Shown: positions 2,025 to 57,410 of the stretch, piece after piece
Layout: each line of letters opens with the position of its first letter
Position numbering within the stretch: the stretch's first letter is position 1
Assembly (NCBI RefSeq): GCF_021730395.1
Contig: NC_069364.1
Location: 83,467,972 to 83,531,971, forward strand
Length of the DNA stretch: 64,000 nt
DNA from: Mercenaria mercenaria
Lineage: Eukaryota
Reading direction: 5' to 3'
Program-made: the position numbers and the translations under genes
Notes under the pieces: generated by a model
Told to the model about the DNA's origin: nothing
The model's database searches: none
What the model saw: only the letters and a program-made list of their open reading frames with translations

Positions 2025-3695
2025 ATTTCATGGAAACAAATATTCTGACTAATTTTCATTAAGATCGGATCAAAAATGTGGTGTCTTAAGTGTAAACAAG
2101 CATTTTCTTCAATTTGACCTAGTGACCTAGTTTCTGAGCTAAGATGACCAACATTCGAACTTGACCTAGATTTGATCAAGGCAATCATTCTGACTAAATT
2201 TCATCAACCTTGATTAAAAAATACAGCCTCTATCGCATACAAAACGTTTTTCTTTGATATATCCTAGCGACCTAGTTTTTGACCCAAGATGACCCATACT
2301 CAAACTTGACCTTTATTTCATCAAGGCTAGCATTCTGACCAAATTTCATGAAGATCCATTGAAAAATAGTCTCTATTACATATACAAATTTTTTTTTTTG
2401 ATTTGACCTAGTGACCTAGTTTTTGACCACAGATGACCCATATTCTAACTTGACCTAGATTCCGTCAAGGCAATCATTCTGACTGAATTTTATGAGAACC
2501 CAGTGTAAAATGCAGCCCCTATTGCATACACAAGGTTTTTCTTTAATTTGACCGGGTGACCTAGTTTTTTATCCCAAAAGACCCATATTCAAACTCCATC
2601 TAGATTTCATATAGACAAACATTCTGATTAAATTTCATGAAGATCCTATGTAAAATGCAGCCCCTATTGCATACACAAGGTTTTTATTTGATTTGACCTA
2701 GTGACCTAGTTTTTAATCCCTGATGATCCATATTCAAACTTGACCTAGATTTTATCAAGGCAATCATTCTGACCAAAACTCATGAAGATCAATTGAAAAA
2801 TACAGCCTCTATCGCATACACAAGGTTTTTCTTTGATTTGACCTAGTGACCTAGTTTTTGATCCCAGATGACCCATTTTCAAAACTAGCCTAGATTTCAT
2901 CAAGGTAATCATTCTGACCAAAATTTATAAAGATAAAATGAAATATACAGCTTCTATCGCATACACAAGGTTTTTTCTTGATTTGACCTAGTGACCTAGT
3001 TTTTGACCCCGGGTGACCCATTTTCAAACTTGGCCTATATTTCATCAAGGTTATCATTCTGACAAAATTTCATGAAGATCAATTGAAAAATACAGCCTCT
3101 ATCGCATACACAAGGTTTTTCCTTGATTTGACCTAGTGACCTAGTTTTTGATCCCAGATGACCCATTTTCAAACTCGGCCTAGACTTCATCAAGGTAATC
3201 ATTCTGACCAAAATTCATGAAGATAGAATGAAAAATACAGCCTCTATCGCATACACAAGGTTTTTCCTTGATTTGACCTAGTGACCTAGTTTTTGACCCC
3301 GGGTGACCCATTTTCAAACTTGGCCTAGATTTTATCAAGGTAATCATTCTGACAAAATTTCATGAAGATCAACTGAAAAATACAGCCTCTATCGCATACA
3401 CAAGGTTTTTCCTTGATTTGACCTAGTGACCTAGTTTTTGATCCCAGATGACCCATTTTCAAACTCGGCCTAGACTTCATCAAGGTTATCATTCTGACCA
3501 AAATTCATGAAGATAGAATGAAAAATACAGCCTCTATTGCATACACAAGGTTTTTCCTTGATTTGACCTAGTGACCTAGTTTTTGACCCCAGATGACCCA
3601 TTTTCGAACTCGGCCTAGATTTCATCAAGGTAATCATTCTGACCAAAATTCATGAAGATCAGTTGAAAAATACAGCCTCTATCGCATACACAAGC
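2025..3695. repeat. Satellite array, about 145-bp monomer, about 11.5 copies
   Basis: The period, measured between gacctagtgacctag occurrences, is 144-146 bp. The consensus is ..gatttgacctagtgacctagtttttgatcccagatgacccattttcaaact.ggcctagatttcatcaaggtaatcattctgaccaaaattcatgaagatcaattgaaaaatacagcctctatcgcatacacaaggttttt. It sits in a PARP4-like intron. Confidence 0.9.
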
Positions 3696-3799
3696 TAAAT
3701 GTTGACGGACGACAGACAGACGACAGACGACTGACGCCGGACATCAAGTGATCAGAAGGTGAGCTAATAACGAAGAACAAAAAGAATAATTTCACTATA

Positions 3800-4610: not shown

Positions 4611-5649
4611 TATCACTCAATTATATAGAATGGCACTGGGCAACTGTTAAACCAGATATATTTAATAGGGATTAATTTTCATATCTTATAAAATTTATGA
4701 AAATTAGTCCTCACAAAAAAAGTATGATTTTAGATCTAATTACTTTGTAAGAAAAACTGATTACTCCTGTGAGGATTAAATCTGGCTTTTGAAAACTGTT
4801 TTTAAATACTGCAAAATGTTGGCAATGCAAAAATAGGACATTATAGTATTATCTTATTTCACAGTGATACAATGTCAGTATCGAGTTTCCTCAGCAGAAA
4901 ATACCAGTCCTGTTGTCTAGCTATGCTATCAGTCTGTATAAAGATGACCTCAATACATTTTGAATCCACAAATTCAGTGCTGTATTTATCAGTTATAATG
5001 TTCAGATTTTAAGACAAACTATGAGACATTTTTCAAAAGCTATCTTTTACACTGTTCTCAATACAGCAAATGTTAAATGTAGCAATACCTAGCTACAGCA
5101 AAATGTAATGTAATTTCCCTTAAAATGCAAAACTAAATTCATATTTGAACACTGAATGCTTTGTTACATGATGAAGATCTAAATCAAACAGAACCAGGAG
5201 CTGTGTTCAATAAACGCTCGATGTCCCCGGTGGCATCCTTGTCGATACAAAGCAACCTAAGTCCAAAACGAGGTCAAGGTCAAACTGAGGTCAGGTGATG
5301 TCTGAAGATGAGGGATGGTCACAGGTTACATCTGCATTAGTATCAAGTCATTCTAGTTAGGGGTATTGATGCTAGATGAAACAGTCCCATTTGGTTAACC
5401 TCGTACGGACGGACGAATGCATGCACGGACAAACGAAGGGGCATAGAAAGTGGAAACCTACAAGTCATCCAACACAACAAAAATGAAAATGTTGAAAAAC
5501 ATATTTCCTGCACTTATGGAGAATATATCTTTGAAAGTACAGTCAAAACTTAGACAATTTTATCAGCAAGACTGACAACGAAGACAAAACTCCGACTTGT
5601 ACACACAATTTACAAGAAACATCCAGTTTTCCAAACAATACTGTGTCAC

Positions 5650-6080
5650 ACCATGACAAACTCTGATACTGGTTTCATATTTACAACTTACCATGACAAA
5701 CTCTGATGCTGGTTTCATATTGACAACTTACCATGACAAACTCTGATGCTGGTTTCATATTTACAACTCACCATGACAAACTCTGATGCCGGTTTTATAT
5801 TGACAACTTACCATGACAAACTCTGATGATGGTTTCATATTGACAACTTACAATGACATACTCTGATGCTGGTTTCATACTGACAACTTACTATGACAAA
5901 CTCTGATGCTGGTTTCATATTGACAACTTACCATGACAAACTCTGATGCTGGTTTCATATTTACAACTTACCATGACAAACTCTGATGCTGGTTTCATAT
6001 TTACAACTTACCATGACAAACTCTGATGCTAGTTTCATATTACAACTTACCATGACAAACTCTGATGCTAGTCTCATATT
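5650..6080. repeat. Minisatellite, 40-bp unit about 10.5 times (ccatgacaaactctgatgctggtttcatatttacaactta)
   Basis: Exact 40-bp periodicity. Confidence 0.9.
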
Positions 6081-6399
6081 TCCTGCTGTTTTCACAACAC
6101 AAGATGGAAACAATTCTTTCCATGCTGAAAATAAAATGTGTATTATTAAATAAGTTTAGAATATAAGTCATTTAATTGTCAAAATATAGATACTGTCACA
6201 ACTTTATTTTTTTTAGAATTTTTATCCATAAACATTTTTTGTGCCTGTTCTTAAATCAAGGACAAGTTTATGTCACATTTAGGTAAATGGGCAACTGAAA
6301 CAAAATGCTATTAAATCCAAAACTAAAAGTACCAAACAGTCTTATGAGAAGATGCATATTCACAACACCTTTACAAATCAATAAAATTCTATCTCTCCA

Positions 6400-7140
6400 A
6401 CTGAGAGTATCTTTGACCTAGGACTACAAATGAAACAAGAGTGCCAGACTGTCACAAAATACGCCCACCATAGAACTTGGCCTAATTCAAGGGGCATAAT
6501 CCAAGAGTGCCTAGGGGGATTTGGGTGGTTATCATACTTGGCCAAGATATTATGCCCACAAACATTGTCAGCAAGTTTTGGAGAGTATCTTTGACCTAAG
6601 ACTATAAATGAAACAAGAGTGCCAGACTGTCACAAAATACGCCCGTTATCGAACTTGACCTATTCAAGGGCCATATTCCAAGAGTGCCTAAGGCGATTTG
6701 GCTGATTATCGATCTTGGCCGAGATATTATACCCATCAATATTGTCAGCAAGTTTGGTGAAGATCAGACGAAAACTGTCGGACTTGGAGAGCGGACAAAG
6801 CTAAATTTGCAGTTTTTCGAGTAATTCAAGGGCCAAAATCCAACAGTGCCTGGGGCGATTTGGCTGGTTATCGAACTTGGCCGAGATATTATGCCCACAA
6901 ACATTGTCAGCAAGTTTTGTGAAGATCGGATGAAAAATGTTGGACTTAGAGTGGACAAGGCCAAATTCGCAGTTTTTTGAGTAATTCAAGGGCCATAATC
7001 CAAGAGTGCCTGGGGCGATTTGGCTGGTTATCAAACTTGGCCGAGATATTATGCCCACAAACATTGTCAGCAAGTTTGGTGTAGATCCTATGAAAACTGT
7101 TCGACTTAGAGAGCGGACATGCTTTGGATGCTGCCCACTG
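6400..7140. repeat. Tandem array, about 160-180-bp monomer, 4 copies, related to the 145-bp satellite
   Basis: The unit is ..aattcaagggccataatccaagagtgcctggggcgatttggctggttatcgaacttggccgagatattatgcccacaaacattgtcagcaagtttggtgaagatc.gatgaaaa.tgt.ggacttagag.gcggacaa. The segment cattgtcagcaagtttggtgaagatc is homologous to cattctgaccaaaattcatgaagatc in the 145-bp satellite. Confidence 0.85.
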
Positions 7141-11060: not shown

Positions 11061-11227
11061 CTGTTAAACAACAAAAGTCAAACATCTACATGTTGACTGT
11101 AAAAAAACATGTTGTATTTTTTTTTTATTCAAAGGGTCATAACTTGTGAAAATTCAACTAACTCTAAACCCATTTAATGTGTACAACTAATGACTGTTCC
11201 TGAGAAGTTTCATTTAAATCCTGCCAA

Positions 11228-11480
11228 TAGTGGAAATTATTTTAGAATTAAAATAATTTAATTTATTTTTTCTCAAACTGTTGCTCGTTAATTACCGTCT
11301 GCTAGTTTATTAAACTGTCGTCTGTTTTCGTATATAAACGTGTCATCGATATTGTTACACTTGGCTGATCTGAACTGGTTCCTACTGATACTGGTACCCA
11401 GTCGATATAATATAAATACCAATAATCTCGTGCAGTTCTCTCACATTTTGCTAGCTACACCGTCGGTAACGTCAAAACTA
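11228..11480. repeat. About 250-bp duplicated promoter-like segment P, copy 1 (copy 2 at 16074-16320)
   Basis: ggaaattattttagaattaaaataatttaatttattttttctcaaactgttgctcgttaattaccgtctgctagtttattaaa.tgtcgtctgttttcgta.ataaacgtgtcatcgatattg...gatataatataaatacc...ctacaccgtcggtaacgtcaaaacta is over 98% identical between copies. Copy 2 abuts the end of repeat R copy A. Confidence 0.85.
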
Positions 11481-14400
11481 TTTACATGTTTTGATTTATC
11501 ATTGCAATGCCTCGTGGTCAAAGGCGGGAACTGATATTTCGGAGGAATCCTTGCAACAGAAATATTCTGCAGTATGCTCCTCAGGACAATGGCAAGAGGG
11601 ATACTAGGTGCAGATGCTTTAGAAGAGAATGTTGTTGACGGTGTTACCAATCTTCTGCCGGTATGTCGAAAAATAATGTCACAGATTTAGTAGATTGTTT
11701 GTTGTTCAAACATAGAGCCTTAAGTTTTGTTTTTTTTCATAATATTCACGAATGGGGTGTGGCGACGCAAATATATATCTACGCACGCGTCTACAGGCTA
11801 TCCTTTTGACTCTATTTTGGCATACAATATCAGTAAACTCGGTTCCACGGTTATTCAAATTTTACTGTGTATATAACTTTTGATGACATAAGGCAACATG
11901 TACTACACTTAGCTCGCAAAATCAAAGGTGTTTTGTATACACAAATGTATAATTTGATTTAATAGTCGCTATTTTGACAGGCGTCTCTGTTCATAGTCAT
12001 GATTTCCATGCTTTTTCAGTGTCAATTTAAGGTTATAAGGTAGAACTGGAGCAGGTGTCTAACAACAGTTCGTTTTTGTAAACATCATGTTTGTAAAATT
12101 AGATTTAGTTTTTGTATCCTAGCTACGATTTTCATATTTTGATATTTATAAGAATTTTGCATGTAGAGAAATATTTGTTTTGAAAACTTGTGGTACGAAT
12201 GACCTAGTAATTGAACTGTATTTGACATTTCTTTACAAACTTTACGCTCGACAGATGTTTACTTAGCGATTAAGGGTCAGCTTTAATTATAGATAAATAA
12301 GGTATTACAACCGAATTGCACAGTCAAAAGTCCGTATTTTGCAAGGGTTTGGTAGTTAATCTGAATAGTTATTAGCGCATTGAATGTACAGAAAAATATT
12401 AAGTTTTTCTGAGAAATCTACTAATGAATTCATCACTTACATTTCAGTATACCAGGTATTCTTACAAAATTGATGAGATATTGCATTATATGTATAACTT
12501 CAGAGATCGCGCATTGCGTTAGAAGAACTTATTCATTTACGAGTTATGACGATCAATTTCTTTTACGTCAAAGCACTTCAGCTCCATGGTCTAAGTCAAA
12601 CAATAATTTATGGGCCATTACATGCTGGTGAAATCAGTTAACATCAGTTTTTATGCATATGTATTATGACTGTAATTTCTGTAATCGTACGTGGTTTATT
12701 CGCAAATTTTCTTACAATGTAAAGTGTACAAATTTCAACGCGCATATGAAGTCTTTAAGTAATCAAAAGTTGTCGTCTTTTTGTTCGAGCTTCCTTTCTT
12801 AAAGGATCACTTCTCAGATTCTGTCAGTTTAGGAAACATAACAGTTGGAACATCTTATCTCTTACACAAACTGTCTTCTAATTTCATTGAATTGCTATGT
12901 TCACTTTAAGAGTAATAGTTAAATACGTTTCACTGAATTCAGAATAATCAATACGCAAATTTAAAATAATATTGAAACTGACCGAGTAGCCGGTCCCACT
13001 GCTAAATTTCAAGATTTCAGTAAAATGTTTCATTTCACAAAAATATTTCAGGTGAATATAGAGGAACTCACCATTTATCATACAATGAACGATCTTATTA
13101 ACGGTTAATATAACTGGGTTCAATAATTAGGTCACTTCGGATCTCAGTTTACGTCATTCATGCGCAGCAGGTTCAATTTAACCATTTATAAATAGTTTAC
13201 GTTATGTAGCATAGAAGTATGTCAAAACATTAAATTCACAGGCGAACACAAATTAAAACTTATTTGTAGATACACGAGGACGTTGACATATCAATTAAAG
13301 TAGCGGTCATTTGTAACTTAACCAGGTACATAACATTTGAATAGTTTGCTAGATTTTAGAATCTGCATAAATCAAAGTTGAACACTAATAAATTGTCACA
13401 TTTCTAAGATTGTACCGGTTCGTCAACATGACAATTTTTACCGGTCAATCTTTACTCGCCGTTTTTGGTCTGACAAAACTATATCATCATACAAGAATTA
13501 GGATATTTAACAATGTTATGATTTTTACAAAAAAAAAAAAAAAAATCAGTTGGATTTCAGTTTTTTCTGTTACAAAGATTTATTATTTGTCTTTTGATAG
13601 TACCCGGGTGAATATTCCGATTTTGGTATTTATTTTCACCGTCACTGATGACTTGATTTATGATACAGACTGGGATTTACAGCAAACATAACATTGACGG
13701 AATTGTTTCCAATCTTAGCGGCGGTTGTGGTTTGGGGATCAGACTTATTAAACAACTGCTGAATAATAAGTAATAAATCTAAAAGCTCTTTTGCCTCAAT
13801 AGGGCAGTTATAAGTATCTTGTACAAACTATTATGTAGTTGTCAGATTTTATTGCTTTCCTATATACGCTGAACATGTACCAGGTCGTCACGATGACATT
13901 TTTGGTTTGTTATTCAGATTCAGATAAGCAGCTCCTGATGTAGATCCATAGAGTTCGAACATTGTTACAATCTTAAATAAAAGTAGCACTTATTCCTCGG
14001 TTACATACAATACAGCTATTAAATCATTATATATATAAAAAAAAAAAAAAAAAAAAATCACTTACCGTTTACCTTAACAATGACCGATATCAACCCATCA
14101 CATTATTTTCTTATAGTGTATGTTGTTTTGTGAAAGACGAATTTAACTTACATTACAGGCTTAAAATCCTACCCCGCTGCTATTCAATTAATTCTGTTGT
14201 GTGTATGCAACCATGATTATGATAGGCACGTACCACGCTGTTGCACGCAAAACTAATGGTATTTCATATAGAATTATATATAAAATAGACTCTATTTTGA
14301 CAGGTGTCACTGTTCATAGTCGGGATTTTCTTGCTTTTTCAGTTACGATTCAAGGTTAAAATGTAGGACGGATGCAGGGCTTTAAATTAATTTCACAAAC

Positions 14401-15206
14401 TGCACGGGTTTTTCATTTACATATGGGTTTCGTCATAAATAAACTGTTAGACGGCTGTCGAAATAATTGTGCTACCCGAGACAAGCGGGCTCTATCGACA
14501 AAGTTTTTAATAAAGGTCAAATGCGACTGCTTCCCGTGCACGATATACGAGGAATACGAGTTGAAAATATGTTAGACTTTGTTTATTGTATCATACTTTG
14601 GTTTGTTTATGTGAGCAAACGATTAACATACAAATTGTTCAAGTTTCATACTTGTCCGTAGTTGAGAACAAATATGCGTATATAAAATTTCAAAACAATG
14701 AAATATGTATCTATCAAAACCCGTTATTTCAGAATTAAGGAATAGAAATCGGGTCACATAAATTTTTCTATAGGCGCAGACAAAATGTCTTCTGTATGTG
14801 CATTAATTATCTCAATTAATAGAGAAATGATCGTAAATTCAGGACTTCTACTCGTTAATCTGGAGTAAAATGTCAGTTTTTTCTTTTTTCTGCAGTTTCA
14901 GCCAAATCTTTAAAAGGGGAGCTTGTACTGTCTAATTGTTGATGCAAGTTATATCAAAATCATAGCTTTGGAAGTTGTAAGATTAGATTTAGTAATATAT
15001 GGCCCACCGCAAGTTAGTTTATTCAGGTGGCAAATTCATTATAATTAGGCTTGATATTGATGCTATGCCACATTTTGTTTCGGTCAGATGGAATACATTA
15101 TAAGAAAGTAGGACTACAGTTTTTTGGTGATTACATAAAAGATGGTTTTTTTTAAGAATAGTTTGAAAGGCCGTAGAATTTTGGCGGATAAATTATAAAT
15201 TTATTG

Positions 15207-16072
15207 TGGCGGTAAAGTTCTGTCGGCCGTGAGGTGAGCGGATACGGTGTCTGTATGTTTGCATTCAAGTTGCGTACTTTGGGGTATCATATGTTTACCA
15301 GTTTGTGTTAACTGGATAGTAAAAGGTTTTGCCCTAGTACTTGGCAATTCCTAGTGTTGCGTGTGTTGCGTACGTTGCGTTGCTCTCAGTGGTGTCACTT
15401 TGCCTTGCCTTGCCTTGCCTTGCCTTTCATTGACTCGTGTTGCGGTTTTGCTCATTCTCGGTGAAACCCGAAATGGGTGGAATGGTAGCTCGACGTTCAA
15501 TTGAAATTGTTGTGTGTTTGCATTTGAGTGATACCTGTTATAAAGTGCAAAGTGTCTTGTGTTGCTTTGCCTTTGAGTGACACCTGTTACAAAGTACAAA
15601 GTGTCTTGCGTTACTTTGCGTTGTTTGAGTGATACCTGTTACAAAGTACAAAGTGTCTTGCATTGCTTTGCCTTGTGGTCCGTTGTGTTATACTGCCTCG
15701 CTTTACATTGGCTAGGGTTGTGCATTTGACCGCATCCCGGTGACACCCGGGCTGGGTTGGATTCACAATTCGAAGTTCGATGGATTGCGCAGTTGCGTTG
15801 TTTTTGCAAGCCTTGGGTTGGTGCGTCTGTTCTCCTCTCGGTCGACGGATTTTGCTGTGCTTTTAACGACTCTACACGGTGAGACCCTTGTTGAGTCATG
15901 AGCGGCCGATCAACTCCCAATATTGTCAATATACTTTTACTGAATTTAATTAAATTATTACAAAATGTATCATGCGTATGTTTAACTATCGTTGAAAGTA
16001 TCAATGCATATTCTTGATGAATAAAGAGTGTTGTATGAGATAATTGGTTTTTTATTTGAGTAATAAAATAAT
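15207..16072. repeat. 866-bp direct repeat R, copy A (copy B at 17354-18213), inside the 7.8-kb PARP4-like intron
   Basis: tggcggtaaagttctgtcggccgtgaggtgagcgg...gagtaataaaataat is over 98% identical between copies. It contains a ccttg microsatellite and three 60-bp internal subrepeats (gagtgatacctgttacaaagtacaaagtgtcttgcgttactttgc). Confidence 0.9.
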
Positions 16073-16073
16073 G

Positions 16074-16320
16074 GAAATTATTTTAGAATTAAAATAATTT
16101 AATTTATTTTTTCTCAAACTGTTGCTCGTTAATTACCGTCTGCTAGTTTATTAAATTGTCGTCTGTTTTCGTAGATAAACGTGTCATCGATATTGTTACA
16201 CTTGGCTGATCTGAACTGGTTCCTATTGATACTGGTACCCAGTCGATATAATATAAATACCAATAATCTCGTGCAGTTCTCTCACATTTTGCTAGCTACA
16301 CCGTCGGTAACGTCAAAACT
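16074..16320. repeat. Duplicated promoter-like segment P, copy 2
   Basis: See copy 1. Confidence 0.85.
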
Positions 16321-17353
16321 ACCCGCCCGCCACACCCTGTATTTATAGGAAACTTTCGAAACATAGAGTTTTGCATCTTTAATTTCGGGCTAGTATGGTA
16401 GTTTTAACAACTTGCTAGAATACTTTGTCAGTATTTTATATACACTTTACTGATCTATTTATGTTGATCTTACATCATCTGTGGAATGTTTTATGAAATT
16501 GGTTCAAAGTTGTATAGGAAATTTGCATAAAGTCCATCTATTTAACAATAGCTAACGTTGATGTTCTAGTTCAAGTTAATTGTTATTGTCCACCCGGTCT
16601 TGACGACTGAGTTGTTAGGTACTGCCGTCTTTTTACTTACAATTGCAGGGTTAAACCGTGCCAAAGTAAATTGATGAGGGTGATATACCGGAGAGCAATA
16701 ACACTGCAGAAGATAACACATCCAGCCATCAAAATGTATGACGGGGCTAGATGTCATCTTGTTACGTGACCAATGACTTCCAAATGTGAGATGTTCATAC
16801 CGTGTTATGAAGAAAAAACTGAGACATTTTGATGCAGTGTATATAAATTTTGTTATTTAAGAAAACAGTTTAGCATGGGCGTGACTATATTTGTATAAGA
16901 CTCTCCAGTATAATTTGAAAGATTTTATACTTCTTTAAAAAGGCACGGGATAGTTGATTGATATTAATATACGTATTTCTAGTATTAAAATATATAAACT
17001 AAATGTACAAGAAGACAATAGTGAAGTAATAAAATTATTAGAATAAGTTTCACTTTTTAAGTTAAATGTTTCGTATTGACATGAAATTCAAGGACAGGAA
17101 AATAATTATAGGAAGTATTGACTGTCGTAAATATTATTTCATGTGAACTTAAAAACTTTGTGATCACAGTTGGATATCACTAAGAAAATTCTGCTATTAT
17201 TTGTGGTAACAATTATTATGTAGGACACTGGCTTTTTAACTGTGACATTTGATAGACCTTAATATTAGTTTTTCTTCATCTTGTCATAATACTATAAGTA
17301 AAAGGTGTTTATTTATAATACTGGCTTGATGGATATTGTCGCTCATAATATGT

Positions 17354-18213
17354 TGGCGGTAAAGTTCTGTCGGCCGTGAGGTGAGCGGATACGGTGTCTG
17401 TATGTTTGCATTCAAGTTGCGTACTTTGGGGTATCATATGTTTACCAGTTTGTGTTAACTGGATAGTAAAAGGTTCTGCCCTAGTACTTGGCAATTCCTA
17501 GTGTTGCATGTGTTGCGTATGTTGCGTTGCTCTCAGTGGTGTCACTTTGCCTTGCCTTGCCTTGCCTTTCATTGACTCGTGTTGCGGTTTCGCTCATTCT
17601 CGGTGAAACCCGAAATGGGTGGAATGGTAGCTCGACGTTCAATTGAAATTGTTGTGTGTTTGCATTTGAGTGATACCTGTTATAAAGTGCAAAGTGTCTT
17701 GTGTTGCTTTGCCTTTGAGTGACACCTGTTACAAAGTACAAAGTGTCTTGCGTTACTTTGCGTTGTTTGAGTGATACCTGTTACAAAGTACAAAGTGTCT
17801 TGCATTGCTTTGCCTTGTGGTCCGTTGTGTTATACTGCCTCGCTTTACATTGGCTAGGGTTGTGCATTTGACCGCATCCCGGTGACACCCGGGCTGGGTT
17901 GGATTCACAATTCAAGTTCGATGGATTGCGCAGTTGCGTTGTTTTTGCAAGCCTTGGGTTGGTGCGTCTGTTCTCCTCTCGGTCGACGGATTTTGCTGTG
18001 CTTTTAACGACTCTACACGGTGAGACCCTTGTTGAGTCATGAGCGGCCGATCAACTCCCAATATTGTCAATATACTTTTACTGAATTTAATTAAATTATT
18101 ACAAAATGTATCATGCGTATGTTTAACTATCGTTGTAAGTATCAATGCATATTCTTGATGAATAAAGAGTGTTGTATGAGATAATTGGTTTTTATTTTGA
18201 GTAATAAAATAAT
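17354..18213. repeat. 866-bp direct repeat R, copy B
   Basis: See copy A. The spacing between copies is 2147 bp. Confidence 0.9.
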
Positions 18214-18454
18214 ATAGAAGAATTAGTTCCTATTTCAAAGCACAATATGTCTTTTCTTCACTTTGACATAAAAATACAACAATCAATGGTGTTCAACTTT
18301 TTATAAAGCATATGTCATATTCCAGAACTGGTATCTCTGTTAAAACAAGCTTACGCTAGAAAGAAGTCACGTAAACGTGCGGTGACGTCAAAAGTTTTTG
18401 TTGCGACCAAGAAAGAGCACTACTATATTTTATCTACTGTTTTAGATTAAGGGC

Positions 18455-18625
18455 ATATTAGAATCGAAATAATTTATAGCAAAACCATGTTTTAACACTA
18501 TTTATACACTTGGGCGGTAATACGTCGTACAAATAATTTCACTCGGGCTGCGCCCTCAGGAAATTATTGCACCCGACGTATAACCGCCCATTGTGCATAA
18601 ATAGTGTTAAAACACTCTTTTGCTA
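18455..18625. repeat. Near-perfect 170-bp palindrome (hairpin-forming, MITE- or foldback-like)
   Basis: aaataatttatagcaaaaccatgttttaacactatttatacacttgggcggtaatacgtcgtacaaataatttc..gggctgcgccc.. is followed by its reverse complement, with arms of about 85 bp at about 93% identity. Confidence 0.7.
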
Positions 18626-18871
18626 TAAATTATTTCTTAAATATTTACTGATCTTTATTCATTCTACTGAATGCACAAGTACTGATTTCAGTACAAAACG
18701 TAAAATAAATCTATAAACAGAAATGGAAGGACATTTTTCTTCATAGATCTTTTTTTCTTAATCTCTCCCTGTCTTGATTCAGGAATAAAAGTGACAAAAA
18801 TCCATTTTCAAGCAGTAAAATTTAGAAACTAATGACAATATCTTAAATAACTTTATATAATTTTAAACACT

Positions 18872-25417: not shown

Positions 25418-25665
25418 ATGATATGAGCCGAGCCATGAGAAAACCAACATAGTGTGTTTGCGACCAGCATGGATCCAGACCAGCTTGCACATCCACGCAG
25501 TCTGGTCAGGATCCATGCTGTATGCTAACAGTTTCTCTAATTCCAATAGGCTTTGAAAGCGAACAGCATGGATCCTGACCAGACTGCGCGGATGGGCAGG
25601 CTGGTCTGGATCCATGCTGGTCGCAAACCCACTATGTTGGTTTTCTCATGGCATGACTCATAATT
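25418..25665. mobile_element. Palindromic MITE family A, long copy
   Basis: Same termini as the copy at 1027, with an internally duplicated palindrome core (ggatccagaccagc.tgcacatcc.cgcagtctggtcaggatccatgctg). It shares extended flanks (atatgagccg.gcc) with the copy at 57176. Confidence 0.7.
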
Positions 25666-25842
25666 ATATGTGATAACTGTGCTGCTTATAAACAAAGTAG
25701 CAAAATCACTCACAGGCTGGACTACCCCACCCACTTCAAACAAATATATCAAACAAGGTTTCGCAAATAACACCAATATACCTTTGCAATTTAAAGGAAT
25801 GCAAAGATATTAAAACTTTGTATTATGGCATACATGTAATAC

Positions 25843-27327: not shown

Positions 27328-27585
27328 TTGGGTTTAACGTCACAAACACAATTATAGGTCATCTGGCAACCTTTCAGCTTTGATGGTGAAGTCCCCAGGT
27401 GCCCTTCCATGCATTATTTCATCACAGGCGGGCACCTGGGTAGAACCACCAACATTCCGTAAGCCAGCTGGATAGCTTCCTCACATGAAGAATTCAACGC
27501 CCCGAGTGAGGCTCAAACCTACATTGATGAGGGGCAAATGATTTGAAGTCAGAGACCTTAACCACTAGGCCACAGAGGCCCCTTT
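27328..27585 (-). mobile_element. tRNA-derived SINE family 1
   Basis: The rc begins aaggggcctctgtggcctagtggttaaggtctctgacttcaaatca (tRNA-like D- and T-box regions) and ends cctataattgtgtttgtgacgttaaaccc. It is about 90% identical to the copies at 29724 and 59020. Confidence 0.75.
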
Positions 27586-27649
27586 GTTATGGAACTCATC
27601 AGTTGTAATCAAACTATCAACAATTATTACTGTTCAGTATTCATCTGCA

Positions 27650-28500
27650 TGTTAACCTTTAGCCTACTGGTTGCAAGTGATGTTGCCTTTGTGGCCAGTG
27701 TAGATCAAGATCAGCCTGCATGCTAACCTTTAGTCTACTGACTGCAAGTGATGTAGCCTTTGTGGCCAGTGTAGATCAAGATCAGCCTGCATGTTAACCT
27801 TTAGCCTACTGACTGCAAGTGATGTTGCCTTTGTGGCCAGTGTAGATCAAGATCAGCCTGCATGTTAACCTTTAGCCTACTGACTGCAAGTGATGTAGCC
27901 TTTGTGGCCAGTGTAGATCAAGATCAGCCTGCATGTTAACCTTTAGCCTACTGACTGCATGTGATGTTGCCTTTGTGGCCAGTGTAGATCAAGATCAGCC
28001 TGCATGTTAACCTTTAGCCTACTGACTGTAAGTGATGTTGCCTTTGTGGCCAGTGTAGATCAAGATCAGCCTGCATGTTAACCTTTAGCCTACTGACTGT
28101 AAGTGATGTTGCCTTTGTGGCCAGTGTAGATCAAGATCAGCCTGCATGTTAACCTTTAGCCTACTGACTGCAAGTGATGTTGCCTTTGTGGCCAGTGTAG
28201 ATCAAGATCAGCCTGCATGTTAACCTTTAGCCTACTGACTGCAAGTGATGTTGCCTTTGTGGCCAGTGTAGATCAAGATCAGCCTGCATGTTAACCTTTA
28301 GCCTACTGACTGCAAGTGATGTTGCCTTTGTGGCCAGTGTAGATCAAGATCAGCCTGCATGTTAACCTTTAGCCTACTGACTGCAAGTGATGTTGCCTTT
28401 GTGGCCAGTGTAGATCAAGATCAGCCTGCATGTTAACCTTAGCCTACTGACTGCAAGTGATGTAGCCTTTGTGGCCAGTGTAGATCAAGATCAGCCTGCA
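27650..28500. repeat. Satellite, about 62-bp monomer, about 14 copies, derived from MITE family B
   Basis: The unit ttaacctttagcctactgactgcaagtgatgttgcctttgtggccagtgtagatcaagatcagcctgcatg is the rc of the family-B segment gcaggctgatcttggtctgcactggtcacaaaggcaggatcacttgc..cagcaggcttatggttaa. Confidence 0.85.
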
Positions 28501-28801
28501 TGTCCCTGCATGCTCACCTTGGTCTGCACTGTTCCACAAGTCTGTAAATTTTCAGTGAACACCCCTTTGAATAATAAGTGGTACTTCTCAAAATGAATGA
28601 TGGACCAGTCCATTTTAGAACTATAGCAAGGTAAAGGTTACCAGTAAGTTATAGTTAACATCCAAGAACCACAGACAAATTATTAAATGGTTAAGTGATT
28701 GCTGTCACTCTGTAAGTTTTTTACTAACAGCACAAACACCCTATTTGCCGTCAAAATACTTAAAGAACCCCAGAAACTATCCTAGAAGTCTTAATACTTA
28801 C

Positions 28802-32596: not shown

Positions 32597-34319
32597 GTAA
32601 CACACGAGTATGTATTGTCTAACTGATTTATTGCATGATTAAAAAGAGTAAAATTAACACATTTTTAAATATCATAAATTTAAAATATTTAAAAATATTT
32701 CCCCTCTTGAGCCTCCCTTAGGAACATTTCATGATAAACCCCCAACTGCCTTATAAAAGCCAGAAGATGGCGCTGGGCAGGTTTTTATATAAATTATGCA
32801 TGCTTCACATCAGAGATCCCTTTTTCAAAATTTTAAATAAATTACTGAAAAAAAAGTTATAAAAAAGTGAAATACACATTGAAACATTCTTTATTGATTG
32901 TTGTAATTATTTTTTAAAACAAAAAGTTGTAAAATAGAGTTTCAGAAATAATTTAAAGTAACTGCTAAAAATTTGAATTTGCCAAGAGGCGCTAACGATG
33001 TCATGAACCCTGGAGAAATAGAGAATGCAAACAATTCCCACGTGGCTAATTTTATCAACAAACCTGATAAGCAGAAGGTTTCATGTAGGCTATCAATGGA
33101 ATTAACACCTAGAGCATATTTTTAAACTGAATAGAATATCATAATCATTTTTGCAGTTATATTTTTATGTTACTTAAAAAATCAAGTTTTAAATCAAGAT
33201 GTAGAGAACTAAACTACAGACATACAGTAATCAATTATTTCAAATAGCTTATCATTTCCAATACCTTATCACAGCAACACTTGCTAATTTATGTATTGTT
33301 CTACATCCCAGACAGAGAAAACTGTGAGCGATACCTGTGTGCAACGGAATTTAGAGCACGGCTAACCGTGGCGATACCAGAATTTAGAAAACAGAAAACT
33401 TCAAAGGAAAATGCCGCAGTCATGCAATAATGTACATTCTCTTCCAAATTCGAATATTAAAGTATCAGTAGAGTGGCAGAAACAGTAAGTGATGTTATTC
33501 CACCTGGAGTGTTCCTCCTTATCCAAACTAACACAGATTTTTCTGTTGGTACTTTTATTTTATAATACTGATTATTTTCACATCTCAACAAGATATATAA
33601 ACAATCCATTGCTAGCATTTTTTTTTCAGTGAGCTGTATGATGAACATTCATGCAGACCAAATGTGTATTTTCTTATTTGAGATATGTTGCAGCCAAGTC
33701 AAATGTGAAACTCACAGAAGATAAATGATAGGTCTCATATTGATGACAAAGACATGCAAAGAAAATTTTGACTCACTGACAGTCTTGAAATATTTTAAGC
33801 AATACACTATTTTTAATGTTTATGCAAAATGAGTCTTTATGATATGCCTTACATTTTTATCATGACACAAAAATGGTACTTGTTTCTTATGAACATAATT
33901 TATTGCTGGATGTGCTTGAGCTATGTGAAGTTGAAGAGACAGATTCAAATATATAAGAGACCTGGGTGTGATACCCTAAGCTAGCTCACTGCAAACTAGT
34001 CCCAATCTGTGACTCTAGTTATCTCCCCTAACAATCAGGGTAATCAACGTACTTCAGTCTTTGAGACATGATTGCTAACACAATGGTGATTTAATGGCGA
34101 AAAGGAAAATATTTCTGAATATTAGCAAATTTGCTTTTGTGCTTGGTTATGTGTAATACACCATATGCCATGTCAGGAGCACTTTGCAGTACCTGAAAAG
34201 TCAAGCACTGACCTAATGGTGATGTCACATCTTTATTACGTCACTGTTTGCACATTTGTTTCAGCATCATGTACTGGTACTTGATAGCAGTAAACTGAGA
34301 GCACAACATTTCAGGCCAA

Positions 34320-34990
34320 TTCTAAGTGTATTAGCGCAAAATAATTTAACTAGACAAATGACCACCCTAGACAGTCAAGTGTATTATCACTAGACAATTG
34401 ACCACCCTAGACAGTCAAGTGTATTATCACTAGACAACTGACCACCCTAGACAGTCAAGTGTATTGTCATTAGACAATTGACCACCCTAGACAGTCAAGT
34501 GTATTGTCACTGGACAATTGACCACCCTAGACAGTCAAGTGTATTGTCACTGGACAATTGACCACCCTAGACAGTCAAGTGTATTGTCACTAGACAATTG
34601 ACCACCCTAGACAGTCAAGTGTATTATCACTAGACAATTGACCACCCTAGACAGTCAAGTGTATTATCACTAGACAAATGACCATCCTAGACAGTCAAGT
34701 GTATTATCAACAGTCAAGTGTATTATCACTAGACAAATGACCACCCTAGACCGTCAAGTGTATTATCATTAGACAAATGACCACCCTAGACAGTAAAGTG
34801 TATTATCATTAGACAAATGACCATCCTAGACAGTCAAGTGTATTATCACTAGACCAATGACCACCCTAGACAGTCAAGTGTATTATCATTAGACAATTGA
34901 CAACCCTAGACAGTCAAGTATATTATCACTAGACAATTGACCACCCTAGACAGTTAAGTGTATTATCATTAGACAAACTAGAGCTATCAC
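34320..34990. repeat. 40-bp satellite, block 1 (ctagacaattgaccaccctagacagtcaagtgtattatca)
   Basis: About 16 head-to-tail 40-bp units. Confidence 0.9.
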
Positions 34991-35039
34991 TAAAGATGAT
35001 GAATATACACCCCCCCCGCATGCACTGACACAGTACATT

Positions 35040-35790
35040 GCAATTTGACGCACACAAGATTGCATAGTTATGTGGACTGTATGTATATAGACTGTATGTA
35101 TACAGTATAGTAACAAAAAACAAAGTTCCATAACTATACAGAATATTTACCTAAAAGAATGTAACATGCACCATGCACAACTAGGGTTGGAACTGATCAC
35201 TTGTGTGAAGTTTCATTAAATTGTGTGCAAGGGTTTGGTAGATTAGGCACGCACAAGATTGCATATGCAGACTGTATGTACATAGTATGTTAACAAGAAA
35301 CAAAGTCCCATAACTCTGCAATTTTTGTCGCTGAAAGAACCTAACATGCCCCATGCACAACTACTGTTGTTACTGATCACTTGTGTGAAGTTTCATTAAA
35401 TTGTGTCAAGGGGATGAGGAGAGGTGGTGCGCACAAGATTGTGTCTATGTATATAGTATAGTAACAAAAAAACAAAGTCCCATAACTCTGCAAATTTTTT
35501 TTCTAAAAGAACCTAACATGCCCCATGCACAACTACTGTTGGTACTGATCACTTGTGTGAAATTTCATTAAATTGTGTCAAGGGGATGAGGAGAGATGGT
35601 GCGCACAAGATTGTGTCTATGTATATAGTATAGTAACAAAAAAAAAAAGTCCCATAACTCTGCAAATTTTTTTTCTAAAAGAACCTAACATGCCCCATGC
35701 ACAACTACTGTTGGTACTGATCACTTGTGTGAAGTTTCAAAAATTCTGTCAAGGGGATAAGGAGAGATGGTGCGCACAAGATTGCGTCTA
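35040..35790. repeat. Tandem repeat, about 172-bp unit, 4 copies, interrupting the 40-bp satellite
   Basis: The unit contains gcacaagattg..tatgtatatagtatagtaacaaaaaaacaaagtcccataactctgcaa...cctaacatgccccatgcacaactactgttggtactgatcacttgtgtgaagtttcattaaattgtgtcaaggggatgaggagag.tggtgc. It ends in a GACA/GACG tract at 35785-35815. Confidence 0.85.
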
Positions 35791-35864
35791 CGGACAGACG
35801 GACAGACAGACAACCTGAAACCAGTATACCCCCCCCCCTTACAACTTTGTTGTCGCGGGGTACA

Positions 35865-38800
35865 ATGACCATCTTAGACAGTCAAGTGTATTATCACTAG
35901 ACAAATGACTACCCTAGACAGTCAAATGTATTATCATTAGACAAAAGACCATCCTAGACAGCCAAGTGTATTATCACTAGACAAATGACTACCCTAGACA
36001 GTCAAATGTATTATCATTAGACAAAAGACCACCCTAGACAGTCAAATGTATTATCACAGTAGACAGTCAAGTATATTATCACTAGACAAGTGACCACCCT
36101 AGACAGTCAAATGTATTATCACAGTAGACAGTCAAGTATATTATCACTAGACAAGTGACCACCCTAGACAGTCAAATGTATTATCACTAGACAAATGACC
36201 ACCCTAGACAGTCAAGTGTATTATCACTAGACAAATGACCACCCTAGACAGCCAAGAGTATTATCACTAGACAAATGACCACCCTAGACAGTCATCAGTG
36301 TATTATCACTAGACAAATGACCACCCTAGACAGCCAAGTGTATTATCACTAGACAAATGACCACCCTAGACAGTCAAATGTATTATCACTAGACAAATGA
36401 CCACCCTAGACAGTCAAGTATATCATCACTAGACAAATGACCACTCTAGACAGTCAAATGTATTATCACAGTGGACAGTCAAATGTGTTATCACTAGACA
36501 AATGACCACCCTAGACAGCCAAATGTATTTAATATCACTAGACAAATGACCACCCTAGACAGCCAAGTGTATCACAGTAGACAGTCAAGTGTGTTATCAC
36601 TAGACAAATAACCACCCTAGACAGCCAAATGTATTTAATATCACTAGACAAATGACCACCCTAGACAGCCAAGTGTATTATCACTAGACAAATGACCCCC
36701 CTAGACAGTAAAGTGTATTATCATTAGACAAATGACCATCCTAGTCAGTCAACTATATTATCACTAGACAAATGACCACCCTAGACAGTTAAGTGTATTA
36801 TCATTAGACAAATGACCATCCTAGACAGTCAAGTGTATTATCATTAGACAAAAGACCACCATAGACAGTCAAATTATTATCAGAGTAGACAGTCAAGTAT
36901 ATTATCACTAGACAAATGACCACCCTAGACAGTCAAACGTATTATCACTAGACAAATGACCACCCTAGACAGTCAAGTGTATTATCACTAGAAAAATGAC
37001 CACCCTAGACAGCCAAGTGTATTATCACTAGACAAATGACCACCCTAGACAGTCAAGTGTATTATCATTAGACAAATGACCACCCTAGACAGTCAAGTAT
37101 ATTATCACTAGACAAATGACCACCCTAGACAGTCAAATGTATTATCACAGTAGACAGTCAAGTGTGTTATCACTAGACAAATGACCACCCTAGACAGCCA
37201 AATGTATTTAATATCACTAGACAAATGACCACCCTAGACAGTAAAGTGTATTATCATTAGACAAATGACCACCCTAGACAGTCAAGTATATTATCACTAG
37301 ACAACTGACCACCCTAGACAGTCAAATGTATTATCACAGTAGACAGTCAAGTGTGTTATCACTAGACAAATGACCACCCTAGACAGTCAAGTGTATTATC
37401 ACTAGACAAATGACCACCCTAGACAGCCAAGTGTATTATCACTAGATAAATGACCACCCTAGACAGTCAAATGTATTTAATATCACTAGACAAATGACCA
37501 CCCTAGACAGTCAAGTGTATTATCACTAGACAAATGACCACCCTAGACAGTCAAATGTATTTAATATCACTAGACAAATGACCACCCTAGACATTCAAGT
37601 GTATTATCACTAGACAAATGACCACCCTAGACAGTCAAATGTATTTAATATCACTAGACAAATGACCACCCTTGACTGTCAAGTGTATTATCACTAGACA
37701 AATGACCAACCTAGACAGTCAAGTGTATTATCACTAGACAAATGACCATCCTAGACAGTCAAATGTATTTAATATCACTAGACAAATGACCACCCTAGAC
37801 AGCCAAGTGTATTATCACTAGACAATTGACCACCCTAGACAGTCAAATGTATTTAATATCACTAGACAAATGACCACCCTAGACAGCCAAGTGTATTATC
37901 ACTAGACAAATGACCACCCTAGACAGTCAAATGTATTTAATATCACTAGACAAATGACCACCCTAGACAGTCAAGTGTATTATCACTAGACAAATGACCA
38001 CCCTAGACAGTCAAATGTATTAATATCACTAGACAAATGACCACCCTAGACAGTCAAGTGTATTATCACTAGACAAATGACCACCCTAGACAGTCAAATG
38101 TATTTAATATCACTAGACAAATGACCACCCTTGACAGTCAAATGTATTTAATATCACTAGACAAATGACCACCCTAGACAGTCAAATGTATTTAATATCA
38201 CTAGACAAATGACCACCCTAGACAGTCAAGTGTATTATCACTAGACAAATGACCACCCTTGACTGTCAAGTGTATTATCACTAGACAAACGACCACCCTA
38301 GACAGTCAAGTGTATTATCACTAGACAAATGACCATCCTAGACAGTCAAATGTATTTAATATCACTAGACAAATGACCACGCTAGACAGCCAAGTGTATT
38401 ATCACTAGACAAATGACCACCCTAGACAGTCAAATGTATTTAATATCACTAGACAAATGACCACCCTAGACAGTCAAATGTATTATCACTAGACAAATGA
38501 CCACCCTAGACAGTCAAGTGTATTATCACTAGACAAATGACCATCCTAGACTGTCAAAGTAGTTTAATATCACTAGACAAATGACCACCCTAGACAGTCA
38601 ATGTATTTAATACACTAGACAAATGACCACCCTAGACAGCAAGTTATTCACAAAATACCACTGCTGTCAAGTATTAATCACTAGACAAACGACCACCTAG
38701 ACAGTCAAGTGTATTATCACTAGACAAATGACCACACCATATTAGACAAATGACCACGCTAGACAGTCAAGTGTATTATCACTAGACAAATGACCACCCT

Positions 38801-39215
38801 AGACAGTCAAATGTATTTCATATCACTAGACACATGATCAACCTAGACAGTCAAATGTATTATCATTAGACAAAAGACCACCCTAGACAGTCAAATGCAT
38901 TATCACAGTAGACAGTCAAGTGTATTATCACTAGACAAATGACCACCCTAGACAGTCAAATGTATTTCATATCACTAGACACATGATCAACCTAGACAGT
39001 CAATGTATTATCACTAGACAAAAGACCACCCTAGTACATGCCTAAGTAGTATTATTATCACTAGACAAATGACCACCCTATGACAGTCAAGTGTATTTGA
39101 TCCACCTAACACAAATTAGCACCAAATCCACTAGACAGCAAGTGTATTATCTAAATCCACTAAGGTACAACAAATGACCACCTAGATCAAGTGTATTATC
39201 ACTAGACAAATAAGT
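35865..39215. repeat. 40-bp satellite, block 2 (about 84 units, with variants gtcaaatgtatttaatatcactagacaaatgaccaccctagaca)
   Basis: Continuous 40-bp periodicity over 3.3 kb. Confidence 0.95.
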
Positions 39216-39915: not shown

Positions 39916-40229
39916 GGTACAAAATCTAGAAATATTTAGATTGTAACATGTTAGAAAAATGTTGAATTCCCTATGTCCCAGTTTCATCTATATATAGTCA
40001 TGTTTGTAAATATCAAATTATTGTTGGGGCATAGTATATGTTATAACAACACACTTGGATTAAAATGTGCATATATAAAAACCCACAGTTGTTTTCATAT
40101 TGAATTGTTTTGGCTGATTATAAAAATGTTATCATGTAAGTTATTTATAGTAACAACAAAGGGAAATTAATCTTAAAAAAAAAACAAAAAAAAACAAGAG
40201 ATCACAGAGTGATCTTGACGCCCACCATT

Positions 40230-41510
40230 GAGCCATTTCTGATTGTTCCAAATTTCAAGACTAGCTCAAGGTCAAATTTCATTTCAGTACACATCACTGT
40301 GCATGTGGCCTATGCATGTGGTCCAAATTTGAAAGCTGTAGCTTGAGAAATGTGAAAGAAGGTCACAAGACCAATTTCAAGGTCAAAGTTCATTTCGGTA
40401 TACAAAACTATGCATATGCTTCAAATTTGAAGCCTGTAGCTTTAGAAATGTGAAAGTAGGTCACTAGGTCAATCTCAAGATCAAAATTCATTTCGGTACA
40501 CAAAACTATGCATGTGGTCCAAATTTGAGGGCTGTAACTTGAGAAATGTGAAAGTAGGTCACTAGGTCAAAATCAAGGTCAAATTTCATTTCGGAACACA
40601 AAACTATGCATGTGGTCCAAATTTGAAGCCTGTACCTTCAAAAATGTGAAAGTAGGTCACTAGGTCAATGTCAAGGTCAAAGTGTTTTTCAGTACACAAA
40701 ACTATGCATGTGGTCCAAATTTGAAGGTTGTAGCTTGAGAAATGTGAAAGTAGGTCACTAGGTCAATGTCAAGGTCAAAGTTTCTTCGGTACACAAAACT
40801 ATGCATGTGGTCCAAATTTGAAGGTTGTAGCCTGAGAAATGTGAAAGTAGGTCACTAGGTCAAAATCAAGGTCAAATTTCATTTCGAAACACAAAACTAT
40901 GCATGTGGTACAAATTTGAAAGCTGTAGCTTGAGAAATGTGAAAGAAGGTCACAAGACCAATTTCAAGGTCAAAGTTCATTTCGGTATACAAAACTATGC
41001 ATGTGGTCCAAATTTGAAGGCTGTAGCTTGAGAAATGTGAAAGTAGGTCACTAGGTCAATGTCAAGGTCAAAGTTTTTTTCGGTACACAAAACTATATGC
41101 ATGTGGTCCAAATTTGAAGGCTGTAGCTTGAGAAATGTGAAAGTAGGTCACTAGGTCAAAATCAAGGTCAAATTTCATTTCGGAACACAAAACTATGCAT
41201 GTGGTCCAACATTGAAGCCTGTACCTTCAAAAATGTGAAAGTAGGTCACTAGGTCAATGTCAATGTCAAAGTTTTTTTCCGTGCACAAAACTATGCATGT
41301 GGTCCAAATTTGAAGCCTGTACCTTCAAAAATAAGAAAGTAGGTCACTAGGTCAATGTCAATGTCAAAGTTTTTTTCAGTGCACAAAACTATGCATGTGG
41401 TCCAAATTTGAAGGCTGTAGCTACAGAAATGTGGAAGTATGTCACTAGGTCAAAATCAAGGTCAACTCATGTCAATGTTCATCTTGCCACTCAAAACTAT
41501 ACATGTGGTC
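40230..41510. repeat. Satellite, about 100-bp monomer, about 13 copies, related in inverted orientation to the 145-bp satellite at 2025-3695
   Basis: The unit is gaaatgtgaaagtaggtcactaggtcaaaatcaaggtcaaatttcatttcggaacacaaaactatgcatgtggtccaaatttgaaggctgtagcttga. The segment ggtcactaggtcaaa.tcaagg matches the rc of the 145-bp monomer (ccttgatttgacctagtgacc). Confidence 0.8.
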
Positions 41511-41529
41511 CAAATCTGAATGTTGTAGG

Positions 41530-48800: not shown

Positions 48801-48825
48801 GGACCGATTAAAAACCTGTTAAGGC

Positions 48826-57159: not shown

Positions 57160-57410
57160 AACAAACATATGAGCCGCGCCACGTGAAAAATCAACATAGT
57201 GGCTTTGCGACCAGCATTGATCCAGACCAGCCTGCACATCCGCGCAGTCTGGTCAGGATCCATGCTGTTCGCTTTCAAAGCCTATTGCAATTAGAGAAAC
57301 TGTTAGCGAACAGTATGGATCCTGACCAGACTGCGCGGATGCGCAGGCTGGTCTGGATCCATGCTGGTCGCAAACGCACTATGTTGGTTTTCTCAAGGCT
57401 GGGCTCAAAA
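57160..57410. mobile_element. Palindromic MITE family A, long copy
   Basis: About 90% identical to 25418-25665. Confidence 0.7.

Follow-up and report, generated by a model that had tools for sequence, protein, structure and literature searches.

Two head-to-tail, transposon-like units inserted in a PARP4-like intron of the hard clam Mercenaria mercenaria

A 64-kb stretch of Mercenaria mercenaria DNA (64,000 nt of contig NC_069364.1, here called the window) carries a PARP4-like gene on its minus strand, and one intron of this gene, 7.8 kb in length, contains a block of 6,983 bp that is extra, inserted DNA. The block is composed of two units, each of which begins with a copy of a 250-nt module (P1 and P2) and ends with a copy of an 866-nt module (R1 and R2); the interiors between these modules, X and Y, are unrelated to each other. 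P and R are most likely the two end modules, 5′ and 3′, of a single family of non-autonomous transposons, which would move via a form in which the two ends are joined; this is suggested by their shared boundaries and status as an insertion, by interiors that are unrelated, by missing coding capacity and by the structure of the ends. An earlier note on this DNA had taken P and R for separate local duplications of regulatory modules. This proposal was not supported, since three boundaries coincide, the block is extra in comparison with related loci, and X and Y share no similarity. This combination is the signature of transposon end modules, an outcome that the earlier note had itself foreseen when naming what would speak against its proposal.

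When the region was compared with the whole window by BLAST, two repeat pairs were returned. The P pair extends over 11226-11480 and 16067-16321 (255 nt, 98.4% identity), and MAFFT alignment of P proper yielded 250 nt with three substitutions and no indels. For the R pair, 15207-16072 and 17354-18213, BLAST gave 98.5% identity over 866 columns; here MAFFT counted seven substitutions per 866 nt, a 5-nt indel in a TTGCC microsatellite and a 1-nt indel. The two R copies are offset by 2147 nt at the R start. These values agree with the earlier description of a segment of about 250 bp present twice with more than 98% identity and of an 866-bp repeat recurring 2147 bp further on with similarly high identity. 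With 3/250 and 7/866 substitutions the P and R pairs are equally old, and the duplications are therefore not only recent, as had been proposed, but also of the same age.

The second P copy had been described as fused to the end of R, and it does adjoin R1 directly, reading ...AAAATAA-T-GGAAATT... at 16072. The two units are thus arranged head to tail, with 4.84 kb for unit 1 (P1-X-R1) and 2.14 kb for unit 2 (P2-Y-R2). Comparison of the three junctions showed that the homology between P1 and P2 begins at (T)GGAAATT, precisely where R1 ends, and that the homology between R2 and R1 stops at AAAATAA(T), precisely where P2 begins. The left edge of P1, the R1|P2 junction and the right edge of R2 are one identical point, ambiguous by a single T. 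It is this identity of the outer boundaries with the internal R|P junction that points to transposon ends and to a joined-ends form. No similarity between X and Y was detected, even with BLAST words of 7 nt. The coordinates of all features are given in Table 1.

Table 1. Features of the inserted block and of the enclosing intron (window coordinates)
Feature	Coordinates	Strand	Basis
P1, putative 5′ end module (A1), 250 nt	11231..11480	+	BLAST, junction comparison, MAFFT
X, 3.7-kb non-coding interior of unit 1	11481..15206	+	ORF, BLAST, Pfam and repeat analysis
R1, putative 3′ end module (B1), 866 nt	15207..16072	+	BLAST, MAFFT, repeat analysis
P2, the other copy of the putative 5′ module (A2), adjoining R1	16072..16321	+	BLAST, junction comparison, MAFFT
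Y, interior of unit 2, 1.03 kb, non-coding and without similarity to X	16322..17353	+	BLAST, Pfam
R2, second copy of the 3′ module (B2)	17354..18213	+	BLAST, junction comparison, MAFFT
Complete inserted block, 6,983 bp, P1-X-R1|P2-Y-R2	11231..18213	+	Repeat topology and intron-length comparison
PARP4-like intron between two VIT-domain exons, phase 0	11063..18871	-	Splice sites in the sequence and exon homology
P1 motifs that P2 also retains: TATAAATA (11411-11418) and the Inr-like TCACATT (11441-11447, with its A at 11443)	11411..11447	+	Motif match only
Exon-like ORF, 29 codons	11574..11660	+	28/29 identical to the N-terminus of XP_053375375.1
GTATGT splice-donor candidate; similarity to XP_053375375.1 stops there	11661..11666	+	Sequence and protein comparison
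Terminal hairpin AAATTATTTTA-GAAT-TAAAATAATTT, 3 nt in from the left P1 edge	11234..11259	+	Inverted-repeat search
R1 hairpin TTTTATT-TGAGT-AATAAAA, 4 nt short of the 3′ end	16050..16068	+	Single-stranded DNA fold
Perfect 9-4-9 palindrome TAAAATAAT-GGAA-ATTATTTTA centred on the R1|P2 junction	16064..16085	+	Inverted-repeat search

The assignment of the region to a 7.8-kb PARP4-like intron was borne out by its splice sites (minus-strand donor GT at 18871-18870, acceptor AG at 11064-11063) and by homology of the two flanking exons, both of which encode the VIT domain. A tblastn search with a sponge PARP4-like protein as query placed the gene between approximately 31850 and 1201. Among proteins matching the VIT exons, none came close to 100% identity. 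The same two VIT exons were found in relatives, namely on a JGI metagenome contig (L001) and on two ENA contigs (L003 and L004); exon nucleotide identity to the window is 83-85% for L001 (83%) and a further relative, L002, and 72-79% for L003 and L004. The homologous introns measure 626 bp (L001), 1,409 bp (L003) and 1,300 bp (L004). Since the intron of the window without the 6,983-bp block would be 826 bp long, compared with 626-1,409 bp in these three relatives, the block represents inserted DNA, and this one block accounts for an approximately nine-fold growth of the intron from about 0.8 to 7.8 kb. Nothing similar to P, R, X or Y was present in the three relatives, whose introns are too diverged from the window intron to be aligned with it or to allow a reconstruction of the empty site.

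The block lacks coding capacity. The longest open reading frame (ORF) in X and Y comprises 93 amino acids, and R contains ORFs of up to 121 amino acids, the longest of which had no homologue among 5.8 billion proteins. Translated in all six frames, X, Y and R+P gave no Pfam match at E ≤ 1 apart from one at chance level, and no frame contained any remnant of a tyrosine recombinase, a reverse transcriptase, an RNase H or gag. No Rfam family was found at E ≤ 1, and hence there is no hammerhead and no signature of a retrozyme or a Penelope pseudo-LTR (LTR, long terminal repeat); a tRNA scan was also empty. Within X, a 160-nt direct repeat (11897-12055 and 14227-14378, 73% identity) occurs with its copies 2.3 kb apart, together with two pure poly(A) tracts at 13529-13545 (17 nt) and 14037-14057 (21 nt). 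These may be older insertions nested within the cargo.

Inverted-repeat searches and folding of single-stranded DNA revealed structured ends. P starts with a perfect 11-4-11 hairpin within its first 29 nt (fold -6.9 kcal/mol, z = -3.2), and P2 carries the same hairpin at 16075-16100. The last 25 nt of R contain, in both copies, a stem of 7-8 bp located 1-4 nt from the end, which folds weakly (-2.7 and -2.5 kcal/mol, z = -2.4 and -2.2) and occurs in R2 in a re-registered 8-bp version. Two adjacent substitutions at R positions 847-848 (TA to AT; 16052-16053 and 18193-18194) shift the register of this hairpin while a stem of 7-8 bp is kept, which could be chance slippage in a run of T. The final 9 nt of R (TAAAATAAT) are the reverse complement of P nucleotides 6-14. 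Beyond these 9 nt, the P and R ends show no significant inverted similarity, the best Smith-Waterman match being a different 12-mer (shuffle p approximately 0.04). The P hairpin and the R|P palindrome are the only perfect inverted repeats in the intron with arms of at least 9 nt and short spacers, for which a first-order Markov model predicts 0.7 occurrences, and the whole 64 kb contains only two other hairpins with stems of at least 10 bp. R1 further includes (GTGTTGCGT)3, (TTGCC)5 at 15400-15426 and, at 15517-15676, a tandem array of three 49-52 nt units. AATAAA occurs twice within the last 53 nt of R, in R1 at 16020-16025 and 16062-16067.

The block is flanked by ...AATAG(T)|GGAA on the left and AATAA|(T)ATAG on the right. 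A T is available on each side, and the boundary is ambiguous by one base; ATAG is present on both sides, and the left flank has AATA.T in common with the R end. The empty site would be expected to read CCTGCCAATAGTATAGAAG without a duplication, ...AATAGTTATAG... in the case of an insertion between two T residues, or CCTGCCAATAGAAG if ATAG is a target-site duplication.

For the promoter-like motifs, the TATA-like strings reported earlier are present in P: TATATAAA at 11331-11338 in P1, which is changed to TAGATAAA in P2, and TATAAATA in both copies. The latter lies 32 nt upstream of an initiator (Inr)-like TCA(+1)CATT. Like the AATAAA motifs of R, these are weak evidence in DNA of 27-36% G+C. 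Downstream of P1, the earlier note had placed a candidate plus-strand first exon with its ATG at 11575 and a GTATGT donor at 11660. Both the ORF and the GTATGT exist, each one base away from the position given (11574 and 11661). The ATG (11574-11576) is located 93 nt past the end of P1 and has a purine at -3; two further ATGs lie between the start site predicted in P1 and this ATG. When the 51-codon open stretch was searched with phmmer against 1.84 billion representative proteins, a single match was significant (E = 5e-8), XP_053375375.1, a RefSeq model of the hard clam Mercenaria mercenaria named "uncharacterized protein LOC128547264". Residues 1-29 of this protein are identical at 28 of 29 positions to the translation MLLRTMARGILGADALEENVVDGVTNLLP of 11574-11660, and the divergence begins exactly at the GTATGT, which lends independent support to the candidate exon.

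None of the remaining 170 residues of XP_053375375.1 is encoded anywhere in the 64-kb window. Since the protein has no Pfam domain and found only itself among 5.8 billion clusters, it is an orphan model rather than a conserved host gene; an exact look-up of the 38-amino-acid ORF containing the exon retrieved nothing on record. Judged by this protein match, the start of X exists elsewhere, in another clam genome or at another locus, and is annotated there as a spliced first coding exon. On the transposon reading, the TATA and Inr-like motifs of P and the exon-like ORF belong to the element, and they could give rise to a plus-strand transcript antisense to the PARP4-like gene. P2 had been suggested as a second copy of the promoter. 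This was not supported, as no copy of the exon follows P2 and its first TATA box is mutated.

As to the mechanism, we commit tentatively to a Helentron-type rolling-circle element, similar to the HINE elements and mobilized in trans. Such a reading is preferred because of the base rate of rolling-circle elements in a clam, the hairpins at both ends, the 9-nt inverted match of these ends, and the microsatellite and tandem repeats of R. In a clam genome, rolling-circle elements make up about 4-5% (about 389,000 copies) and tyrosine-recombinase elements 0.2%, a ratio of approximately 135 to 1 by copy number (PMC8905726). The marks of HINE and Helentron elements comprise a 5′ subterminal inverted repeat of 11-13 bp whose inverted complement follows at a distance of 1-22 bp, a microsatellite and central tandem repeats, a palindrome accompanying the 3′ subterminal repeat, and insertion between two T residues without target-site duplication; tandem copies, and copies alike in their flanks and not in their interior, have also been reported (PMC4067079, PMC7492417, PMC11417382, PMC5148889). 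In the block, the 5′ hallmark is found 3 nt from the 5′ end in both P copies, in the form of AAATTATTTTA-GAAT-TAAAATAATTT, and the microsatellite and central tandem repeats correspond to (TTGCC)5, (GTGTTGCGT)3 and the three 49-52 nt units in R, features that are typical for HINEs of bivalves. At the 3′ end, where a subterminal repeat of 11-16 nt is expected, just 9 perfect nt (TAAAATAAT) occur at the very end of R. According to this model, a Rep/helicase encoded elsewhere would mobilize the unit. The 5′ hairpin would be formed by the 5′ subterminal inverted repeat and the complement close to it, its 3′ counterpart would be the final 9 nt of R, which overlap the 3′ hairpin, and X and Y would be cargo that varies between family members. 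The dimer could have arisen by the precise addition of another unit to the 3′ end of the one already present, or both could have been copied in together as a composite after the transposase had read through the first 3′ end.

Several observations weigh against a Helentron-type element. No further copy of P or R was found by BLAST in the window, where the P and R end motifs do not recur at up to three mismatches either (none expected from shuffles). The same holds for two scans of metagenome contigs (no match for the R tandem-unit motif or for the 23-mer of the R|P junction), one of viral contigs (24-mer of the R start) and one of prokaryote genomes (R motif), so that mobility is deduced from structure alone. 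The inverted match of the ends covers 9 nt instead of the 11-13 nt of HINEs, and the best end match in the Smith-Waterman comparison involves different nucleotides at a p of only about 0.04. All stems are made up of A and T alone, the 3′ repeat and the 3′ hairpin overlap where the repeat should come first, and the boundaries lack T runs, with a single T between the units. Units of 2.1 and 4.8 kb are large for a HINE. A Rep/helicase partner is missing from the 64-kb window, the only ORFs of at least 130 amino acids being two without a Pfam match at 48950-50365. Finally, a precise dimer with different cargo requires two events or a composite donor, compared with one event for a split-direct-repeat element, and such dimers must be rare among rolling-circle elements.

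The competing possibility is the single insertion of a non-autonomous split-direct-repeat tyrosine-recombinase retroelement of the PAT, Ngaro or VIPER type, organized as A1(P1)-X-B1(R1)A2(P2)-Y-B2(R2); the Helentron-type element is favoured over it only slightly, and we regard the retroelement as possible and on the unlikely side. Transcription would begin in P1, past the TATA box, and finish in R2 behind an AATAAA signal. The R|P junction would serve as template for closing a circle, which a recombinase acting in trans would then open at the palindromic R|P for integration. The A1...B1A2...B2 layout is matched exactly (PMC8547959, PMC6681497, PMC4157794), kilobase spacing between A2 and B2 has a precedent in nematode Pat1 and Kangaroo (PMC4157794), and one event covers everything, including the difference between X and Y and the fact that the P and R pairs have diverged equally. 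Moreover, the perfect R|P palindrome with a crossover at the edge of its spacer resembles a recombinase core site, the AATA.T of the left flank recurs at the R end, P has its TATA box and Inr-like motif and R its two terminal AATAAA, and an ORF begins 93 nt past A1, at the expected place of the first ORF of such elements. Ngaro and DIRS elements are present in bivalves (PMC10294476, PMC8905726), and SIRE provides a precedent for a non-autonomous derivative (PMC6681497). On the other hand, gag, reverse transcriptase, RNase H and tyrosine recombinase have left no trace in spite of repeats that are about 99% identical. As reverse transcriptase and tyrosine recombinase are absent, only a non-autonomous, fully non-coding derivative could be involved, and a fully non-coding family in such a form is not described in the cited literature. 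The model also assigns no role to the 3′ end hairpin or to the inverted match of the ends, tyrosine-recombinase elements are some 100-fold rarer than rolling-circle ones in a clam genome (PMC8905726), and R with its 866 nt exceeds the B repeats of 57-294 nt in the cited literature. An extended version, in which such a fully non-coding element is a parasite of tyrosine-recombinase retroelements whose working TATA/Inr promoter in P and short spliced leader exon seeded at least one orphan clam gene (LOC128547264) and would here drive a transcript antisense to the PARP4-like gene, is improbable; it would relate to its hosts loosely as terminal-repeat retrotransposons in miniature (TRIMs) do to LTR elements, and would be the first described.

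Explanations that do without a transposon of either kind fare less well. That P and R are locally duplicated host regulatory modules, with P1 as the promoter of a nested plus-strand gene beginning with the exon at 11574-11660 and P2 as a spare promoter, is in accordance with the 28/29 identity to a Mercenaria mercenaria RefSeq first coding exon with the same donor, with the spacing of TATAAATA and the Inr-like motif and with the purine at -3. We nevertheless consider it unlikely: independent local duplications are not expected to produce three coinciding boundaries, the block is missing from the homologous introns of the relatives, and XP_053375375.1 is an orphan without a Pfam domain or homologue and has no downstream exon in the window. 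In addition, the sequence after P2 is unrelated to that after P1, one TATA box of P2 is mutated, and two ATGs intervene between the predicted start site and the ATG. Still less probable is a local tandem duplication of P-X-R followed by replacement of one interior, or an assembly artefact joining haplotypic or paralogous copies. Long-read assemblies sometimes produce false tandem duplications, and the head-to-tail order and the identity of about 99% would fit. The lack of similarity between X and Y in BLAST, however, would require an exact replacement from the end of P to the start of R, the 10 substitutions and two indels between the copies are unlike a simple collapse or expansion, and the junction sits in a structured palindrome. 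The least probable candidate is an array of LTR retrotransposons, TRIMs or large retrotransposon derivatives (LARDs) in which R+P forms the LTR and both outer LTRs are truncated. R1+P2 is indeed a 1.1-kb unit flanked by internal regions, and the ATAG on both outer flanks might be a 4-bp target-site duplication. However, TG...CA termini, a primer-binding site after P, a polypurine tract before R and a tRNA match are all lacking, two independent truncations exactly at the R|P point would be needed, and the internal regions X and Y differ. Three further candidates were rejected. A partial tandem of the Penelope-like kind does not agree with full 5′ ends in both units and with the difference between X and Y. 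Inverted ATTATTTTA ends and a duplicated GGAA target, as in a cut-and-paste transposon, agree with unit 1 but not with unit 2, which has GGAA at one side and ATAG at the other, and the ends of a canonical Helitron (5′ TC ... CTRR 3′, inserted between A and T) misfit in either orientation.

Most likely, the block is an ordinary young transposon insertion of a known kind that expanded the intron, with a Helentron-type or a split-direct-repeat element as its likeliest class. For annotation, this means that near-identical "promoter-like" modules in an intron are best read as transposon ends before duplicated regulation is considered. A transposon-borne cassette of TATA box, ATG and GT can show up as exon 1 of an orphan gene model, and the cassette described here is a reason to re-examine LOC128547264 and to check the PARP4-like gene for antisense transcription. 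If copies throughout the genome keep the order P-X-R-P-Y-R, they would constitute a non-coding split-direct-repeat family, not described in the cited literature.

The surroundings of the block contain additional repeats. In the same intron, 250 bp past the right end of the block, there is a foldback at 18466-18636 resembling a miniature inverted-repeat transposable element (44-nt arms, 91% complementary, 83-nt loop). Just downstream of the homologous VIT exon, L003 harbours a BEL/Pao-type retrotransposon ORF of 1,496 amino acids (12787-17277) and L004 a mariner-type transposase (11648-12715); the neighbourhood of the PARP4-like gene thus gathers transposons in several lineages. In sponge-type PARP4-like homologues a single unbroken ORF spans both VIT exons (Corticium candelabrum XP_062507749.1 belongs to one of their clusters), and the intron is therefore absent in that lineage. 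Elsewhere in the window, a dispersed repeat of about 230 nt occurs at 1060-1175, 25440-25673 and 57187-57420 with 79-91% identity between copies; it has an internal inverted pair, GCGACCAGCATGGATCC...GGATCCATGCTGGTCGC, and resembles a small non-autonomous transposon. Satellite-like arrays, several of them within PARP4-like introns, are located at 2100-3700, 5570-6120, 6400-7100, 27500-28580, 34200-39000, 40200-41600 and 43600-44570, with periods of 145, 40, 160-177, 71, 40-44, 98 and 20 nt. Two segments within 48822-50365 are 100% identical over at least 300 nt and lie 975 nt apart; they overlap the only window ORFs of at least 130 amino acids (165 and 146 amino acids, minus strand), which have no Pfam match.

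Four kinds of known system come closest to the block. Like HINE, DINE-1, Cg_HINE and pearl elements (non-autonomous Helentrons, HLE2 rolling-circle transposons), which are very abundant in bivalves, it is non-coding, and it shares with this family a 5′ subterminal repeat that has its inverted complement at a distance of 4 bp, and a microsatellite with a short satellite-like tandem array. The short, weak 3′ hairpin, the ends complementary over 9 nt, the T available on each flank at a boundary ambiguous by one base and the lack of a clear target-site duplication may be further common features, and the tandem copies and the copies with shared flanks and different interiors reported for HINEs resemble the block. 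It differs from them in its shorter inverted end match (9 nt, not 11-13), the overlap of 3′ repeat and hairpin, the A/T-only stems and the missing T runs, in the position of the variable segment before and not after the microsatellite, and in units of 2-5 kb; the conserved 3′ module of Cg_HINE has about 60 nt, compared with 866 nt here. With Pat1, Kangaroo, Ngaro and VIPER/SIRE, the block has in common the arrangement A1-X-B1A2-Y-B2 with outer ends that line up with the internal B|A junction, near-identical repeat pairs, the lack of a canonical target-site duplication and an A module of similar size. In contrast to these elements, it has no gag, reverse transcriptase/RNase H or tyrosine recombinase ORFs or remnants, and where they carry a tyrosine recombinase gene or about 30 bp of spacer, its Y is 1 kb of non-coding DNA. 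Helitron composites of bat, maize, rice, Fusarium (FoHeli) and Xenopus (HelenXT233) are likewise head to tail, with a precise junction of 3′ end and 5′ end and end modules duplicated at one locus, while in the block both units are complete and their cargo is different. Finally, the block is similar to transposon-borne promoter and first-exon systems that feed chimeric or orphan gene models, in that an end module with TATA and Inr-like motifs is followed by an ATG...GT exon, which here corresponds to exon 1 of an annotated orphan gene.

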